Assembly: GCA_049515915.1 (NCBI GenBank)
Contig: JBEKTP010000004.1
Location: 12,709-76,708, forward strand
Length of the DNA: 64,000 bases
Source of the DNA: Patescibacteria group bacterium
Lineage (GTDB): Bacteria; Patescibacteriota; UBA1384; UBA12157; JAENIV01
Direction of reading: 5' to 3'
Shown here: positions 1-24,798 of the stretch, in pieces
Layout of the letters: every line of letters starts with the position of its first letter
Numbering within the stretch: position 1 is the stretch's first letter
Notes under the pieces: generated by a model
Database searches by the model: none
Seen by the model: the letters and a program-made list of their open reading frames with translations, nothing else
Told to the model about the DNA's origin: nothing
Translations under genes and position numbers: made by a program

Positions 1-1884
1 GTATTCAACCAAATGTTTTCGAATATCAAAGTTATGACCTTCGACTTTTTTCTGGGCCGATTCGATCGAACGCGAAATGAGCGAATGCTGGATAGGCATA
101 TCTTCGGGCAGACTCATTTTCTCCATCATGCTTTTCATCCGGTCACCACCGAAAATGCGCATTAAATCGTCATCCATCGAAACATAAAATTGAGAAGAGC
201 CTGGATCACCTTGACGACCCGAGCGGCCGCGCAGCTGATTATCGATTCGGCGAGATTCATGTCTTTCGGTGCCAATCACGTGCAGGCCGCCGGCTTGAAC
301 GACTTTTTCATACGGAGTTTTATTAAACGGCGAACCGCCCAAAATAATATCAACACCGCGGCCGGCCATGTTGGTCGCCACCGTCACATTGGCAGGTTGA
401 CCCGCTTGCTCAATAATTTTTGCTTCGCGTTCATGATGTTTAGCATTTAAAACTTGATGTTTGACGCCCGAACGCTTTAAAAGCCGCGAAAGTTTTTCCG
501 ATTTTTCGATCGAAATCGTGCCCACCAAAACGGGCTGACCGCTTTCGGATCTTTTTTTAATTTCTAAAGCGACCGCTTTAAACTTGCCGTCCTCGGATTT
601 ATAAATCATGTCGTGAGCATCTTTGCGGACCATCGGTTTGTTGGTCGGAATAACCACGACGTCAAGTTTATAAATTTTATAGAATTCCTCCGCTTCGGTT
701 TCGGCCGTGCCGGTCATCCCTGCCAGTTTTTTATAAAGTCGAAATAAATTCTGAAAAGAAATAGTCGCTAAAGTGTCGGACTCGCGCTGGACTTCGACGC
801 CTTCTTTGGCTTCAATCGCTTGGTGAAGACCTTCAGAGTAGCGGCGACCAGGCATCATGCGGCCAGTAAATTCATCAACAATAATGACTTCGCCATCTTT
901 AACGACATAGTCTTTGTCTTTTTTATAGAGTGCGTGAGCAATTAAAGCTTCTTCTAAATGATGAACCAGTTCGATCGAACGGGCGTCATAAATATTTTCG
1001 ATTCCCAACATCCCTTCGATCTTCTTCATCCCGACATCCGTTAGCGAAACGGCTCGCATTTTTTCATCAACAGTGAAGTCTTCCTCCTTTGTTAATTGCG
1101 GCACCATCATTGCAAATTGGCGATATAATGACGCTGACTCCTCGGCCGGGGCAGAAATAATCAAAGGCGTGCGCGCTTCGTCAATTAAAATTGAGTCCAC
1201 TTCATCGACAATGGCGAAATTGAGCTCCGGCCTTTGCACCATTTGTTCCAAGCTCTGGACCATATTATCGCGCAAATAATCGAAACCGAATTCATTGTTG
1301 GTGCCGTAAGTAATGTCGGCGGCGTAGGCATCTTTCCGCGTCACCGGCCAGAGATTTTTCCAGGTTGGGTCGTCGGTTTCAATGTTTTCCGGTCGATAAA
1401 CCCAAGACTTATCGTATTCAATCGCCCCGACCGTTAAACCTAAAATATGATAAATCGGCCCCATCCATTGAGCATGGAATTTCGCCAAGTAATCATTAAC
1501 TGTCACAAGATGGACACCTTTACCTTCGAGCGCATTTAAATACAATGGCAGCGTCGCGACCAAGGTTTTTCCTTCGCCGGTTTTCATTTCGGCAATTTTT
1601 CCTTGGTGAAGAACCATTCCGCCGATAAGTTGAACATCAAAATGCCGCTGGCCGATTGTTCTTTTGGCCGCTTCGCGCACTAAAGCAAACGCTTCTGGCA
1701 ATATTTCATCAAGCGTCGCACCTTTTGATAATCTTTCTTTAAATTCCGCCGTTTTTTCTTTAAGTTCTTTATCGGTCAGTTTTTGAAAATCATCTTCAAG
1801 ACCATTTATCTTTTCAATAACCGGCTTAAAACCACCAATAACTTTTTCATTCGAGTCAAAAATTTTACCTAAAAACCCCAGCAT
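1..1884 (-). CDS. secA: Preprotein translocase ATPase SecA (N-terminal ~628 aa; gene continues beyond window start)
   Basis: Manual minus-strand translation from ATG at 1884: [48 protein letters not shown]...[30 protein letters not shown]...[18 protein letters not shown]. SecA DEAD-motor motifs present. Absent from the ORF track only because no stop codon lies inside the window. Confidence 0.95.
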
Positions 1885-1953
1885 TTTTAATATCCTTTTT
1901 TACCTAGCTCTAAATCATATTTTAGCACTTTTTTAGGTTAAATAGAAGAGACT

Positions 1954-2322
1954 TTAGAGTTCGTCTTCGGCTTCTTCTTCGAGTTCAGCTTCGTGATATT
2001 TTTGGGGATAACGCGTGCCGATTTTAACTTGTTCCTTATATTTTGAGATTTGAGTTTCCAAACGCTCTTCAATCAGATCAATCGAACCTTTATAATCAGA
2101 GGTTACTTCTTCAATATGAATTGGGTTTTTGATACCGGGTAAAGTCATGGTGAGAGAAACCGCTTTATCCACGCCGCCCTTTGGACCCATCAAATCGCTT
2201 AGAACTACTTCTAATATAGCCGGTTCAGAAACCAGTTTTTCAAACTTTCGGAGTCTTTCTTCAATATAACCTCTTAAATTATCGTCGACTTTAAACTGTT
2301 TGCCGGAAATAATTATTTTCAT
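1954..2322 (-). CDS. hpf: Ribosome hibernation promoting factor (HPF/RaiA/YfiA family)
   Basis: 122 aa, MKIIISGKQFKVDDNLRGYIEERLRKFEKL... typical sigma-54 modulation/ribosomal subunit interface protein. 4-nt overlap with serS and conserved hpf-secA synteny. Confidence 0.85.
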   Translation of the reverse strand: MKIIISGKQFKVDDNLRGYIEERLRKFEKLVSEPAILEVVLSDLMGPKGGVDKAVSLTMTLPGIKNPIHIEEVTSDYKGSIDLIEERLETQISKYKEQVKIGTRYPQKYHEAELEEEAEDEL

Positions 2323-3539
2323 GACTTAATTTCTTTAAAATCCAAATATTTTTGTAATGCTTCGGGCACTTTAACCGTACCATCATTTTGATAAAAATTT
2401 TCCAAAATGGCGATCAGCATTCGGCCAATCGCCACCGCTGTGCCATTGAGAGTATGAACAAATTCATTACCTTTATCCGATTTATAGCGAATATTTAAAC
2501 GCCGCGCTTGAAAATCAGTGCAGTTACTTGATGAATGGGTTTCGCGGTATTTTTCTTGGCCGGGCAGCCAAATTTCTAAATCGACGGTTTTCGCGCAGGG
2601 CAATCCTAAATCCCCGGTACAAACTTGGACAAGGCGGTAGGGGAGACCCAAACCGGAAACTATTTTTTCTTCCAAATTTACAATCAACTCGTGTTCTTTT
2701 TCAGAGTCTTCCGACTTTGAAAAACTAAACATTTCTAATTTATCAAACTGATGAGTCCGCAATATCCCCTTCACATCTTTGCCGTAACTGCCTGCTTCAC
2801 GGCGTAGACAGGTTGAAAAACCGACAAATCTTTGCGGGACATCGATAATTTCATCCGCATAATATGGCAAAATCGATTGTTCGGAAGTGCCAATCGCTAC
2901 TAAATCATCGCTACGCATATGATACGCGTCGTCATTGGTGGCTTCAAAATGGCCCGACCCCCACGCTATGTCTTCTTTAATTAAAACTGGGGTCAAAATT
3001 GGCTTAAATCCTTCCTGCTTGATGATATCCATGGCATATTTTACCAGCGCAAACTCGAGTTCGACCGCTTCATTTTTAAGATAATAAAACCGGCTACCGG
3101 AAACTTTGCCGGCGCGTTCGATATCGATAAGATCCAAAGCTTTACCGATTGTCACATGGTCTCGGCCGGATTTCAATTTGATCTCGCCAACAGTTTTTAG
3201 GACTTTATTTGCGGCGTCAGATTTTCCTTCGGGCACATCTTTAAAAGGAATATTAGGCACTTTGACCGCTTCGACTTTGAAATTTTCTTGCGTATCGACT
3301 AACTGCGGCTCGAGATCTTTAAGCATAGCTTTAATTTCTTTGGCGTGCGTCATATCGCCCTTTTCTTTTGAAACTTTATTTTGTTCGGCCCGCAAAAGTT
3401 CGATGCGGCCTTCGAGACCGCGGCGGTCTTCATCGAGCTTTAAAAGTTTCTCCCAATCGATATTGACCCCGCGTTTGGCGATAGCCGATTTAACTTCTTC
3501 CAAATTTTCCCGAATGTATTTTATGTCAAGCATATTCAC
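2319..3539 (-). CDS. serS: Seryl-tRNA synthetase (class II)
   Basis: 406 aa with N-terminal coiled-coil arm plus class-II core (FSTCLRREAGSYGKD, TLNGTAVAIGRMLIAILENF). Track start at 3539 is GTG; an ATG at 3533 preceded by AAGAGGTG is the more likely start. Confidence 0.95.
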   Translation of the reverse strand: MNMLDIKYIRENLEEVKSAIAKRGVNIDWEKLLKLDEDRRGLEGRIELLRAEQNKVSKEKGDMTHAKEIKAMLKDLEPQLVDTQENFKVEAVKVPNIPFKDVPEGKSDAANKVLKTVGEIKLKSGRDHVTIGKALDLIDIERAGKVSGSRFYYLKNEAVELEFALVKYAMDIIKQEGFKPILTPVLIKEDIAWGSGHFEATNDDAYHMRSDDLVAIGTSEQSILPYYADEIIDVPQRFVGFSTCLRREAGSYGKDVKGILRTHQFDKLEMFSFSKSEDSEKEHELIVNLEEKIVSGLGLPYRLVQVCTGDLGLPCAKTVDLEIWLPGQEKYRETHSSSNCTDFQARRLNIRYKSDKGNEFVHTLNGTAVAIGRMLIAILENFYQNDGTVKVPEALQKYLDFKEIKS

Positions 3540-3549
3540 CTCTTAAATA

Positions 3550-4576
3550 TTATATCATCTTTTTTAGTTTTTTTCTCAAGTAATATCCATTACAATGTTT
3601 TAAAAGTCCAAGATATGATGGTAAATTTTTTTTACTTCGTTTTTGCAACATTCTCTTCTTGGTCTTGGTTCGCAAAACTCGATAATGCGGCAAAATAACA
3701 TAGCCTAAAAAATCTATGCCTTGTTTTAATTTACGCACAATAATTTTTTGAGGATGCGGTCTTAACGCAAGACGGCAATCAAGAAAAAAAGAAATTCGGC
3801 CGACCAAAATCTCTAACTCAGTGCGGTTGCCGCTTAAAATTACAAAGTCATCGCAATAGCGAAGATAATATTTGATTTTTAAACGATGTTTAATAAACTG
3901 GTCAAGTTCGTTGAGATAGATATTGGCAAAAAGCTGTGAAGTTAAATTGCCAATCGGAAGCCCAGTTCCGTTGAGGTTTAACTCGCGGATTGGATTCGTC
4001 TCTCTCTCTCTCTCTCTCGAAAAGTCCCTGCTGAACATATGGTTTATTAAAGCTACCAATAATAACTTTCAATAGCCATTGTGTGTCAGGATCGGGGACT
4101 TTTCGAGCAACAATATCAAAAAGAGCTCGATGATTGACCGAGGCAAAGAACTTTTTAACATCGCATTTTAATACCCAGCACGGCTTGGTATAATTTTTGC
4201 TGACAATCCTCGTAAATTCTTCCAGCCGTTTTACCGCCTTATGCGTACCTTTTTTATTTCGACAAGAATAAGAACCGTCCACAAAACCAGGGTCAAAAAT
4301 CGGATATAATACCCGATAAATCGCGTGGTGAACAATCCTATCTTTAACACAAGCTTTGTGAATATGCCTCGATTTAGGGTCAGTGATGTAAAATGAGGTA
4401 TAATCGGAATGCCGATAAGTTTTACTTTTAAGTTCCAAGTGCAGGCCGAATAAATTATCTTCTAAATTACGCTCAAATTCTTGAACATCAATCTTGTGGC
4501 GTTTACCCTTCCTAAACTCCTTCCAAGACCAAAATAAGTTTTCTAAAGAAATAATTTTTAAAAAGAGGTTATCCAT
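3550..4576 (-). CDS. DGR reverse transcriptase, interrupted by a frameshift inside a (TC)10 dinucleotide repeat (two overlapping ORFs 3902..4576 and 3550..4059)
   Basis: N-terminal ORF: ...FYITDPKSRHIHKACVKDRIVHHAIYRVLYPIFDPGFVDGSYSCRNKKGTHKAVKRL... (RT motifs 1-2). C-terminal ORF: GLPIGNLTSQLFANIYLNELDQF...YLRYCDDFVIL (DGR-RT signature QGxxxSP-like LPIGNLTSQ and YxDD catalytic box). Both frames read ERERE across the (GA)n repeat at 3999..4018. Total ~340 aa, DGR/retron-size RT with no maturase or endonuclease domain. Confidence 0.9.
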
Positions 4577-4916
4577 GATTAATGATGTTCCAATTGTCCA
4601 AAAGGTTTACGACTTTTACCGTGAATTTTATCAGACTCTTCCAAGCATGCCAAAACAGGACCGTCATGTTTTAGGCGGCAAAATCCAGCAAGCCACACTT
4701 GATCTTTTAGAAGATTTAATCTCGGCCAGCCATCAAGGAAAACAAAATAAACTCGAATATTTATCGAAGGCGGCAACGAAACTGGATTTACTCAAGCTTC
4801 TTTTACGGCTGGCGGAAGATATAAAAGCCATATCTCCCAAAAGATATTTGGCGCTCTCGGAAATCTTGCAAGAAATCGGCAAGATGCTCGGCGGCTGGAT
4901 TAGAAGTCTCAACTAA
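4575..4916 (+). CDS. avd: DGR accessory variability determinant (Avd; four-helix-bundle / 23S-IVS protein family)
   Basis: Track ORF 4494..4916; likely start ATG 4575 (MINDVPIVQKVYDFYREFYQTLPSMPKQDRHVLGGKIQQATLDLLEDLISA...ILQEIGKMLGGWIRSLN). The pattern and C-terminal IGKMLGGWIRSLN closely parallel Bordetella phage bAvd (..VGRILGSWIARVN), quoted from memory rather than checked here. Start overlaps the RT start divergently. Confidence 0.75.
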   Translation: MINDVPIVQKVYDFYREFYQTLPSMPKQDRHVLGGKIQQATLDLLEDLISASHQGKQNKLEYLSKAATKLDLLKLLLRLAEDIKAISPKRYLALSEILQEIGKMLGGWIRSLN

Positions 4917-4956
4917 AAGCAAAAACTCCCGCCAATGACGGGAGAAATGAAGAAAG

Positions 4957-5083
4957 TTGCGGCGGAACGCCCACCGGTTGTTGCCATTCCAGACGTTGTC
5001 GGGGTGACCATTGTTGCCGTTGAGCCAACGTCCGTCCTCGTTGCGTTCGACGTTGAACACCTTGAGGTTGCCGTCGGAGTCCG
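4957..5083 (-). repeat. DGR template repeat (TR)
   Basis: 127-bp near-copy of 5506..5632. All ~23 mismatches fall where this copy has T on the + strand (A on the minus/transcribed strand). The corresponding pseudo-ORF is Asn-rich (NVERNEDGRWLNGNNGHPDNVWNGNNRWAFRRN), i.e. AAY codons. Confidence 0.9.
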
Positions 5084-5154
5084 TCAAGTGCAAAACGCCC
5101 TCCGAAGTCACTGCTCCTCGATTACTCTCAGAGCTGTATTTTATTTTGGGCCAT

Positions 5155-5355
5155 TTAACCCACTGGCGTTTTGCACCAAGTATCTTCATTTTTTAAGCAT
5201 TGCCGAATCGCTATATGCAAAGAAACTTTGCTTATAACAGGCCAATAGACCTCACTATCCCAAGCCGTAGCCGGGAATACTCCGGATTTGACAACGCCAG
5301 GATTCGGTAGCGGAAAGCCGTAACCGTCCGCATATTCACCTAATACCTTACCCAT
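5155..5355 (-). CDS. Hypothetical 66-aa protein between VR and TR (possible DGR accessory ORF)
   Basis: ORF with AAGGAA RBS 3 nt upstream of ATG; no recognisable family; ends just upstream of TR. Confidence 0.3.
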   Translation of the reverse strand: MGKVLGEYADGYGFPLPNPGVVKSGVFPATAWDSEVYWPVISKVSLHIAIRQCLKNEDTWCKTPVG

Positions 5356-5407
5356 TGTTCCTTATGAGTACTTATCTGTCAAGTCAATTTTAAAAAATTT
5401 TCGAAAA

Positions 5408-5452
5408 CCCGATTTTGAAGATACAAAATCGGGCCCCGCTCTCGCGGGGCCC
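5408..5452 (-). terminator. GC-rich hairpin (9-bp stem, 4-nt loop, 5431..5452) followed by a rho-independent terminator hairpin (5408..5433 plus T-tract), immediately downstream of the DGR target gene/VR
   Basis: +strand gggccccgc-tctc-gcggggccc and cccgatttt-gaagatac-aaaatcggg; on the minus strand the second stem is followed by TTTTCGAAAATTTTTT. Confidence 0.65.
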
Positions 5453-5501
5453 GGACAAGACCCAAGGATCCAAAAGAAACAAGGATCCAAGGTACAAAGA
5501 A

Positions 5502-6176
5502 CTACTTGCGGCGGAACGCCCACCGGTCGTCGCCATCCCAGACGCCGGCGGGGTGACCACGGTGGCCGTAGAGCCAACGACCGCCCTCGTCGCGCGCGAC
5601 GCTGAACACCCGGAGGCGGCCGCCGGAGACCGAGATAGGCTCCATACCCACCAGAATCCACTCGCCCATCGGTTGATCGGCGTACTGAAGACGCCACTGC
5701 GGCCCGACTTCCGCCGGACAGAGACCCAGCCCCATGGAGAGCGCTTTCTCGTAGATCTGGGCCCGGGTTGCGCCGTTGGGAAATCCCAACTCGGCGACCG
5801 AGACCACCACGATATCCACGTCCTCCGGCTTCGAAGCGACATTGATCCGCTTGAGAATGTCGTCGCCCCAGTCGCCGATGCGGTAACCCGCGTCAAGGAG
5901 AGCCTTCCGCAAGTCCTTGACGGACTTGTGCGTGCCCAGCTTGATGGTCGCGAACGGCCTGCGCTCCATGATGGGTTTGCGCAGTTGCTGCTCGGCAGCC
6001 AACTGGTCGAGGAGATCGTGGTGCCGCTTCTTGAACTCGGGGTGATCCATGGCATCCTGCAGATCGGCGGTATTCCGCCGTTCTCTGCCGATAGCCTCGC
6101 AGCGCCGACCGTAGTCCTTAACCGCGTCTTCTGAGACACCTTCCTGCGTCGCTTCGAGAGTAACTCGATCTTTCAT
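5502..6176 (-). CDS. DGR target (variable) protein, 224 aa, C-terminal C-type-lectin-like VR region
   Basis: C-terminus ...VFSVARDEGGRWLYGHRGHPAGVWDGDDRWAFRRK aligns with the TR-encoded NVERNEDGRWLNGNNGHPDNVWNGNNRWAFRRN, with Asn replaced by S/D/G/Y/H/R/A. No signal peptide. Locally GC-rich (>60%) against a ~40% background. Overlapping ORFs 5390..6139(-), 5415..6134(+) and 5362..5697(-) are GC-artefact frames. Confidence 0.85.
   Translation of the reverse strand: MKDRVTLEATQEGVSEDAVKDYGRRCEAIGRERRNTADLQDAMDHPEFKKRHHDLLDQLAAEQQLRKPIMERRPFATIKLGTHKSVKDLRKALLDAGYRIGDWGDDILKRINVASKPEDVDIVVVSVAELGFPNGATRAQIYEKALSMGLGLCPAEVGPQWRLQYADQPMGEWILVGMEPISVSGGRLRVFSVARDEGGRWLYGHRGHPAGVWDGDDRWAFRRK
5506..5632 (-). 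repeat. DGR variable repeat (VR), 3' end of target gene
   Basis: Aligned to TR: identical except at TR-adenine positions (T->C/G/A on + strand). Ends at the stop codon of ORF 5502..6176. The first ~21 nt (ttgcggcggaacgcccaccgg) are identical in both copies (IMH-like). Confidence 0.9.
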
Positions 6177-6351
6177 CGGTTACTTCTCCTTTACTCTGTG
6201 TTTTTTTTAACTAGGTCTACACCTGACCCGCAGTCGCTGGTCTATCCTCTAGGAGGAAGCCCAACGATCTGATGATATCTTAACGCTTCCAGGTTGGAAA
6301 CGCCATTTTAATGTGCACTCACGATAAGATTAACTCATCGTGAAGTAACCA

Positions 6352-6374
6352 GTTAGTATAGCACAATTATACCA
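6352..6374 (-). promoter_or_regulatory. Putative extended -10 promoter (TGTGCTATACT) upstream of DGR target gene
   Basis: Minus strand reads GGTATAATTGTGCTATACTAAC; the same TGTGCTATACTAAG motif recurs upstream of ftsA (17768..17790) and CTATACTAAAG upstream of secG. Confidence 0.4.
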
Positions 6375-6424
6375 AAAAATCAAGGTCTTGGCCCTGATTT
6401 TGCGGTAAGAATTTCCCTTTTAAC

Positions 6425-6727
6425 CTATTTTAATATTCCTAACTTCGCCTCAATTTTCGACAACCTTTGTTTTACTTCGATAAGTTCGTCACGTCTGACC
6501 ATTTCCGTCGCTATAAATTCCAAATGAGAAATATCTTTTCTAATTTGTTTTTGACCTTTAACCAAACTGGTATGAATGGTAGTAATGGCATCAAATTCTC
6601 TTTTTGCCATCGCCGCTAAACTACCAACCTCACCTTCAATCTTTTTTTCCAATTTTTTCTCAGTTTGGTTGGCCCTTTTATCAACGATTGTGCTAATCTG
6701 CTTTAAGTCGTCAGTAGTTAATGTCAT
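6425..6727 (-). CDS. Hypothetical coiled-coil protein (100 aa)
   Basis: Lys/Glu-rich heptad-like sequence, no family recognised; TTGACA-17-TAATAT promoter with a perfect palindrome (atattaaaaGttttaatat) at its start. Confidence 0.5.
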   Translation of the reverse strand: MTLTTDDLKQISTIVDKRANQTEKKLEKKIEGEVGSLAAMAKREFDAITTIHTSLVKGQKQIRKDISHLEFIATEMVRRDELIEVKQRLSKIEAKLGILK

Positions 6728-6765
6728 ATTATGATATTAAAAGTTTTAATATTGCTTGTCAACAT

Positions 6766-6818
6766 CCACGGCCTAAAGGCCGTGGCTTGTGGCAGACTCT
6801 TGTTCCTACTGGAACAAG
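6766..6818 (-). terminator. Two tandem 8-bp-stem hairpins downstream of lysK
   Basis: ccacggcc-taaa-ggccgtgg (6766..6785) and cttgttcc-tact-ggaacaag (6799..6818), directly after the lysK stop. Confidence 0.5.
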
Positions 6819-24513: not shown

Positions 24514-24798
24514 TGGTGCCTGGGGGCAGAATCGGACTGCCGACACCATGATTTTCCATTTTTATTTGGACTATCTCATCATCCCGATCAATCGGGAGTT
24601 GGGCGCTAATACAAGATTATTGTTGGGACTCACTTGTTAGTCTCTACACCTTCTTCAGTACTCAAACCCACTGAAGCTTGGCTCGGGATTATCGATATAA
24701 GAATTCGACTTCCCCGAATTCACCCAATTTTCATCTCCGATTTACACCGGAGCGGACCGAAAATTCAGTCATGTGCTCTACCACTGAGCTACCCAGGC
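24514..24798 (-). tRNA. tRNA-Phe (anticodon GAA) interrupted by a 210-nt group I intron in the anticodon loop; CCA encoded
   Basis: 5' exon 24798..24767 GCCTGGGTAGCTCAGTGGTAGAGCACATGACT; 3' exon 24556..24514 GAAAATCATGGTGTCGGCAGTCCGATTCTGCCCCCAGGCACCA. The spliced product is a canonical 75-nt tRNA closely matching E. coli tRNA-Phe. Confidence 0.8.
24557..24766 (-). other. Group I intron (ORF-less, 210 nt) inserted between U33 and G34 of tRNA-Phe
   Basis: 5' exon ends in U, paired (G.U wobble) with intron IGS GGUC at intron nt 9-12 (P1: gacu/GAAUUUUCGGUC). Intron ends in ...AAAAUG (omega-G). P7-like AGACUA...UAGUC elements at GAGACTAACAAG / GAGATAGTCC. Several internal hairpins (P2 CTCCGGTGTAAATCGGAG, GAATTCGGGGAAGTCGAATTC, CTTCAGT..ACTGAAG, TCCCGATTGATCGGGA). 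Confidence 0.75.

Follow-up and report, generated by a model that had tools for sequence, protein, structure and literature searches.

The diversity-generating retroelements (DGRs) closest to the one considered here are those of the candidate phyla radiation (CPR). The accessible portions of Wu et al. (2018, PMC5758913) report Architecture B3, TR-(avd)-RT, for 90% of a CPR DGR set, where TR is the template repeat, avd the gene for the accessory variability determinant and RT the reverse transcriptase. CPR elements also appear as "DGR clade 2" in Roux et al. (bioRxiv 10.1101/2020.04.01.020958). The element under study is found in a 64-kb stretch of patescibacterial DNA (contig JBEKTP010000004.1), which is called the window throughout. 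As far as the accessible portions of the two papers go, the window element is like these CPR elements in how TR, avd and RT are ordered and oriented. It is also like them in the variable repeat (VR) situated at the 3′ end of an upstream target gene, in the host group, and in the RT sequence, which shows 50–68% identity. However, repeats in RT or avd, split RTs and on/off states are not mentioned in these portions, whereas the window element displays an RT that is split by a (GA)10 simple sequence repeat (SSR), a likely on/off switch.

The DGR of Bordetella phage BPP-1 (mtd-avd-TR-brt) shares the four components and the adenine-specific TR-to-VR differences, along with a GC-rich hairpin that follows the VR and a stem-loop immediately past the TR. 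In contrast to BPP-1, the window avd sits on the opposite strand, between TR and RT, and the TR is only ~40 nt from the avd stop. Because of this short distance, an equivalent of the ~140-nt spacer RNA of BPP-1 would be antisense avd in the window. Also unlike BPP-1, the window element is chromosomal and lies among housekeeping genes, and its target is without a signal peptide.

The third group for comparison consists of SSR contingency loci, known as poly-G or other short repeats within genes of Neisseria, Haemophilus and Campylobacter, from phase-variable methyltransferases (PMC5909438), and from phage (PMC12633550). As in these loci, the length of an intragenic repeat sets the reading frame, the repeat is site-specific, and its length varies between otherwise identical genomes. 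Three differences are found. The gated gene of the window would drive a second, targeted hypermutation system and is not a surface or modification gene. The ON state is not observed in the window strain. Lastly, in relatives that carry poly-G tracts, one tract participates in two antisense-overlapping genes.

The present locus bears on how DGR mutagenesis is restrained: a mutator of adenines that never paused would go on erasing variants of use to the cell. The accessible portions of the literature searched, to which Paul et al. (2017) does not belong, show no repeat gating of a DGR RT or avd. The avd/RT layout is already known as B3; the putative gating of RT and avd by repeats is noticed here by sequence comparison.

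The RT is split at a GA tract

The original prediction took the RT as one intact open reading frame at positions 4576–3550 of the minus strand. This had to be revised, as the frame changes at a dinucleotide tract.

3550..4576, minus strand: DGR reverse transcriptase in two frames, with an N-terminal open reading frame at 4576–3902 and a C-terminal frame that runs to 3550
3999..4018, minus strand: (GA)10 simple sequence repeat, candidate phase switch, placed in the variable loop that separates RT motifs 3 and 4

The two open reading frames match the two halves of the RVT_1 family, and tblastn places them in frames −1 and −2. With 11 or 8 GA units the RT reads as a single protein of 342 or 340 amino acids (aa), respectively. 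DGR-type RTs are defined by an I/LGxxxSQ motif and a YxDD motif. The repaired protein shows the RVT_1 match and both motifs, as LPIGNLTSQ and YCDD, and when aligned with 20 homologues it retains every invariant column, before as well as after the tract. Elsewhere in the 64-kb window, a (GA)5 is the sole dinucleotide repeat of at least 5 units.

The full RT frame requires a number of units n = 2 mod 3. Tract lengths in assemblies of the same strain were gathered via exact-protein look-ups of Avd in metagenome assemblies; a scan of metagenome DNA with the tract flanks gave one contig only. The lengths in the 14 other same-strain assemblies are as follows.

10 GA units: 2 assemblies
12 GA units: 4 assemblies
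13 GA units: 3 assemblies
15 GA units: 1 assembly
16 GA units: 2 assemblies
18 GA units: 2 assemblies

All six out-of-frame lengths in the range 10–18 are thus represented. An intact RT open reading frame is found neither in the window, where one added unit restores it, nor in the other assemblies (0 of 14). In a collection of ~15 billion proteins, the out-of-frame N-terminal fragments with n = 10, 12, 13, 15 and 16 are present on 21 contigs, and the exact in-frame RT proteins with n = 5, 8, 11, 14, 17, 20 and 23 are absent. The best full-length RT homologue is only 68% identical. One VR allele occurs with several tract lengths.

VR alleles and recent activity

The two repeats of the element are both found on the minus strand.

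5506..5632, minus strand: variable repeat, the last ~42 codons of the target, 127 nt, 83% identical to the TR
4957..5083, minus strand: template repeat, 127 nt, possibly extending to 5086

All 22 mismatches between TR and VR are at TR adenines, which is the pattern that marks a DGR repeat pair. Six same-strain assemblies (L081–L086) were compared with the window over 9–13 kb, and all are at least 99.66% identical to it. L082 is identical to the window. In L081, L084 and L086 the differences are confined to the GA tract and the VR, and L083 and L085 show 7 and 1 substitutions, respectively, outside of these two regions (up to 12.9 kb compared). L085 carries the VR allele of the window. In L081, L083, L084 and L086 the VR differs from that of the window at 18–21 positions, all of which are TR-adenine sites. 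The TR is identical across the seven sequences compared, i.e. the window and the six assemblies.

Six VR alleles are found among the same-strain assemblies, with position-by-position mapping done for five assemblies. The element appears to have been active recently, because the six alleles differ only at TR adenines. This is indirect evidence from sequence that mutagenic retrohoming has occurred in the recent past.

The alleles of the VR at 5506–5632 (L081–L097) look mosaic. The first half of allele F is that of allele A and its second half is that of allele G; allele E departs from allele A at just one TR-adenine site. The mosaic alleles thus point to partial retrohoming, recombination, or assemblers that mix co-existing variants.

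Repeats in related DGRs

The comparison set consists of 80 related RT loci with 43–68% identity, mostly labelled Patescibacteria. In homologues 55–68% identical to the window RT, RERE repeats are situated in this same loop of variable length, which separates motifs 3 and 4. In 836 kb of related loci, six dinucleotide repeats of at least 6 units are found, and five of them fall inside the RT match, at comparable places along the gene. There are five genome representatives that carry (GA)n, and in four or all five of them the RT is in one frame.

Both intact and split forms are seen in two protein clusters. In P0053 (Berkelbacteria), intact forms (318/333 aa) are found on ~29 contigs and split forms on ~26; an example of a split form is the GenBank pair PIR27449.1 and PIR27450.1, with OIN89161.1 as the intact counterpart. 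The P0037 cluster shows intact forms with differing (ER)n lengths, plus fragments.

A second type of tract is more frequent. In the census of the 80 relatives, 56 display a run of G8–G14 (RT strand) at the RT/avd junction, 5 display (GA)n, 19 display neither and none displays both. Of G/C runs of 8 or more in the related loci, 56/59 are at this junction site. The poly-G tract (L007–L078, e.g. L012 5967–5975; also L101–L105) is embedded where the 5′ ends of RT and avd overlap in antisense. The RT start (MNQR, MHQR, MYQR) is the antisense of the His codon in the Avd PLVHK motif, and the avd ATG (MTN...) is in turn antisense to a His codon in the RT ...ICHNIF... motif; both His codons are conserved. 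The head-to-head gene overlap is ~60–90 nt, with the tract in mid-overlap. RT and avd are in or out of frame jointly, and one change of length shifts both.

Frame states were scored in 43 poly-G loci by motif-anchored frame analysis: 9/43 are in frame, 26/43 have one nt too many and 8/43 have two too many (chi-square ~14). The uneven distribution could come from mutational bias, from selection for OFF, or from +1 frameshifting on CCC-C / GGG-G. Within an Azambacteria strain, G11 versus G12 is the sole difference over 2.4 kb of a locus that is otherwise 100% identical, and it is found between two separately deposited 585-kb genome assemblies. With G12 both genes are in frame; G11-type proteins are found on far more contigs. 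A (CT)9 in L013 (149–166) and a second G10 in L049 (6609–6618) are situated off the main RT/avd junction, and these tracts may belong to second DGR copies.

The window strain shows two marks of a contingency locus, an intragenic SSR that sets the frame and a repeat length that is polymorphic among otherwise identical genomes. A third mark, the presence of both ON and OFF alleles, is found in related lineages but not in the window strain. That patescibacterial DGRs in general are contingency-gated mutators, either by (GA)n in the RT loop or by a poly-G/C tract that shifts RT and avd together, is a tentative extension which we hold with slightly more doubt than belief. Under it, the diversifying machinery would be turned on seldom and for short periods, and lineages would diversify and then lock in the outcome. 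If true, one stochastic mutation system would control another, and no genetic regulator of DGR activity would have been described earlier for the group.

Arrangement of avd and RT

Positions 1–6800 of the window form a run of minus-strand genes, and the sole plus-strand gene there is avd.

4574..4577: CATG, carrying both start codons, with a 2-nt overlap of the avd ATG and the RT ATG
4575..4916, plus strand: avd, accessory variability determinant, 113 aa, PF22296 bAvd, E-value = 7e-23

The plus-strand ATG of avd is at 4575–4577, with an AAGAGG ribosome-binding site 6 nt upstream. The Pfam bAvd (PF22296) match scores 81.5 bits against a cutoff of 40 and starts at residue 7 of avd; the accessory protein of a DGR is thus present. 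The minus-strand ATG at 4576–4574 opens the open reading frame with the RVT_1 match. The sequence at the junction is ...AAGAGGTTATC-CATG-ATTAAT..., and the RT N-terminus MDNLFLKIISLENL (MDNLF...) is the start in many homologues. Both starts are well supported, because the homologue N-termini agree and the bAvd match begins at residue 7. Thus the overlap of the two start codons, as originally proposed, stands when an alternative RT start is considered. The assignment of avd stands as well, as no second Avd-like open reading frame is found within the 64-kb window (the next best has E = 0.79). The window likewise contains no second RT or VR, and Rfam shows nothing in the DGR region.

On the minus strand, the order is target (6176–5502, with the VR at 5632–5506), TR (5083–4957), avd in antisense, and RT. 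The coordinates agree with the earlier description, in which avd lies antisense between TR and RT and the TR is downstream of the target. That description also called the architecture atypical, and here we differ. In the window the core order is TR-(avd)-RT and avd is encoded on the reverse strand, as B3 is defined. When other loci with a head-to-head avd/RT were sought, as the original prediction had proposed, avd was found to abut the RT start from the opposite strand in 70/80 related RT loci, and the order VR-TR-(avd)-RT in 54/54 relatives with detectable TR/VR. In the latter the TR ends at most 66 nt short of the avd stop, or in a few loci just inside avd. The layout is therefore not atypical, because it is already published as B3 and is common to the relatives. 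The window element is an ordinary CPR-type chromosomal DGR, and back-to-back avd and RT are the normal layout for the group. The CATG overlap is common to L001, L002, L006, L076 and L079; in most relatives the head-to-head overlap is far above 2 nt.

The overlapping divergent starts might themselves be a regulatory device, in which mutual promoter occlusion or antisense pairing of the 5′ ends couples or opposes the expression of avd and RT. The conservation of the head-to-head overlap across the clade is consistent with this, and a promoter-like site for RT lies inside avd (see below), so that the 5′ transcripts would overlap. But the arrangement is not specific to the window locus, the overlap there is only 2 nt, and the split RT is left unexplained. 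Such a device is considered doubtful as the explanation of this locus.

A proposed repeat switch and its alternatives

The explanation favored here, with moderate confidence, is an otherwise ordinary DGR of the CPR type under the control of a hypermutable (GA)n repeat that acts as an on/off switch. Through replication slippage the RT would pass from OFF, the state of most cells, to ON and back, with ON being rare or short-lived. The VR would be diversified in ON cells, a return slip to OFF would fix a VR variant, and OFF clones would dominate the assemblies. The hairpin after the TR would separate the convergent TR transcript from avd, and RT, possibly together with serS-hpf-secA, would have its promoter within avd. 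As the RT mRNA may double as a leader for essential genes, a switch that acts on translation would leave transcription running. If true, a repeat switch in RT/avd would be a simple heritable restraint on DGR mutagenesis.

Several points weigh against a switch in the DNA. The in-frame lengths 11, 14 and 17 are not found among the 14 same-strain assemblies, so that the ON state is deduced only from the VR alleles and the relatives. The chance of 14/14 out-of-frame tracts, a point in favor of a switch, would be (2/3)^14 = 0.003 if the assemblies were independent, but they may not be, as some European Nucleotide Archive (ENA) records may re-assemble the same reads, and probabilities for tract lengths are therefore upper-bound impressions. 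The n = 18 fragment (contigs L083 and L097) is also missing from the protein collection, so absence from it is no proof. The contigs give the consensus only, which makes minority tract lengths within a population invisible. The promoters are consensus matches only, and low-level RT could be made by slippage in transcription or translation without a DNA switch.

This last point leads to the main rival explanation of the tract, in which it is an expression attenuator. The out-of-frame tract would be the working state, slips of RNA polymerase or the ribosome over a single GA unit (±2 nt) would yield full-length RT at a low level, and the in-frame allele would be counter-selected since excess RT would be harmful. 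This would account for the in-frame length that is never seen while six other lengths are seen, and for a VR that has diversified in spite of an out-of-frame tract in every consensus. The two out-of-frame phases are both represented, and a 2-nt shift on a period-2 repeat preserves codon-anticodon or RNA-DNA pairing; the poly-G relatives with 26/43 loci in one out-of-frame phase (one nt too many) also fit. However, in other lineages with (GA)n about half of the contigs carry in-frame alleles, and the RT is in one frame in four or five of the five (GA)n genome representatives. In addition, dinucleotide slippage of this kind is hypothetical. An attenuator is thus judged unlikely.

A decaying element, where a frameshift in an accidental repeat inactivated the RT and the DGR is heading to loss, would produce the split RT seen in every same-strain assembly. 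Against it speak six VR alleles that differ at TR adenines only among otherwise near-identical genomes, and a tract whose length keeps changing. Moreover, the RT shows no other lesions and keeps all invariant residues, and the repeat is conserved at the equivalent site in distant relatives, with intact alleles included. Decay is very unlikely.

An assembly or sequencing artefact is hardly credible, for although dinucleotide and homopolymer tracts are error-prone and some related contigs end within the repeat, the lengths of 10–18 units have identical flanks, several of them turn up on more than one contig, across different samples and assemblers, errors would not avoid precisely the in-frame lengths, and the poly-G difference of G11 versus G12 is found in two separately deposited 585-kb assemblies.

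Neighboring genes and transcription signals

In the direction of minus-strand transcription the genes and repeats are lysK, a 100-aa open reading frame, the 224-aa DGR target, the TR, RT, serS, hpf and secA.

6425..6727, minus strand: 100-aa helical open reading frame between lysK and the target; no family match and no match to the Avd profile
2319..3533, minus strand: serS, Pfam tRNA-synt_2b and Seryl_tRNA_N
1954..2322, minus strand: hpf (ribosome hibernation factor), PF02482, with a 4-nt overlap of the hpf start and the serS stop
1..1884, minus strand: 5′ part of secA by translation, runs off the window; the full contig encodes an 850-aa SecA

The 100-aa open reading frame at 6425–6727 may belong to the DGR cassette. 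L098 carries a 108-aa open reading frame (4231–4557) in the equivalent position, where homology was not checked.

The RT was originally placed within a serS-hpf-secA operon. The adjacency itself is upheld: the RT stop is at 3552–3550 and the serS ATG at 3533, leaving a 16-nt gap in which the ribosome-binding site of serS lies, the overlap of serS with hpf is 4 nt, and the secA start follows ~70 nt beyond hpf. There is nothing special in this adjacency, as a same-strand open reading frame is found at most 50 nt after RT in 25/75 relatives, and tight downstream packing is common. serS is near RT in only 1/80 loci; its adjacency is lineage-specific. In L015 greA, lysK and serS are contiguous, and in L098 the target is just after lysK, as in the window. 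Because lysK and serS are contiguous in L015, the DGR cassette appears, from gene order, to have been inserted between them in the window lineage.

A terminator scan of the window region shows no terminator-like site in the gap between RT and serS. Two such sites are found upstream of RT, one after the VR (5453–5430) and one after the TR (4944–4926). These and two promoter-like sites are listed below.

5430..5453, minus strand: hairpin of 10 bp, GC only, with a T-rich tail, from the terminator scan, 49 nt past the target stop
5354..5382, minus strand: promoter-like TTGACA-17-AACAAT upstream of the TR, consensus match only, candidate promoter of the TR RNA
4926..4944, minus strand: hairpin CTCCCGTC-ATT-GGCGGGAG followed by TTTTTGCTTT, 12 nt past the TR and just outside the avd stop
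4625..4653, minus strand: promoter-like TTGGCA-17-TAAAAT with an upstream TG, consensus match only, inside avd and ~50 nt before the RT start

The hairpin at 5430–5453 is likely a terminator and/or the GC-rich inverted repeat known downstream of the VR. The accessible portions of Wu et al. (PMC5758913) describe a GC-rich inverted repeat downstream of the initiation of mutagenic homing (IMH) site. A hairpin with a T-rich tail just after the TR is found in 38/55 loci, the window included. An Avd-binding stem-loop is reported just downstream of the TR (bioRxiv 10.1101/2023.10.23.563531), and we infer that the hairpin at 4926–4944 terminates transcription between avd and the convergent TR RNA, and/or is such an Avd-binding stem-loop. 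The site at 4625–4653 is a candidate promoter for RT, possibly also for serS-hpf-secA. The latter genes may depend on transcription that starts in the avd/RT region.

Target gene

The gene that carries the VR at its 3′ end shows no Pfam domain.

5502..6176, minus strand: DGR target gene, an open reading frame of 224 aa, no Pfam match, no signal peptide

The target family consists of ~148 homologues of 130–330 aa, and those with a named source are CPR. The protein is probably a small cytoplasmic protein. The AlphaFold model has a predicted local distance difference test score (pLDDT) of 91. The best PDB matches of the model are C-type lectin domains, with weak values (E 0.08–1, template modeling score about 0.4), so the predicted fold weakly resembles a C-type lectin.

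The target is 63% GC compared with 42% GC for the window. In four genomes the whole target gene, not the VR alone, is 17–21 GC points above its own AT-rich genome. The GC-rich homologues, alongside the window gene at 5502–6176, are the following.

L098, 5001–5666: GC-rich target homologue
L099, 5001–5651: GC-rich target homologue
L100, 5001–5648: GC-rich target homologue

Horizontal transfer was considered for the GC-rich target and set aside, as the homologues in three other AT-rich genomes are equally GC-rich. By this comparison the high GC would be a property of the family and not the result of a one-off transfer. The L098 and L100 contigs end just after the target gene. These ends fit assembly breaks at the VR/TR repeat, as expected.

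Annotation of DGR loci and other features

Gene callers give several errors in DGR loci: avd is truncated (or RT, where the two overlap), RT is split, and a spurious open reading frame is called antisense to the TR. In the window, a spurious 100-aa open reading frame of this kind is situated at 4935–5237 on the plus strand. A repeat switch, if true, would account for the many CPR DGR RTs and Avds whose annotations are fragmentary or give the wrong start. Surveys that demand an intact RT or a non-overlapping avd will under-count or mis-annotate the clade.

Outside of the DGR region, a group I intron (Rfam RF00028, 62 bits) is found at 24555–24766 on the minus strand. The site is read as an intron-containing tRNA gene overlooked by the tRNA scan, because in-silico removal of the intron yields a tRNA-Leu(UAA) that is recognised by ARAGORN.

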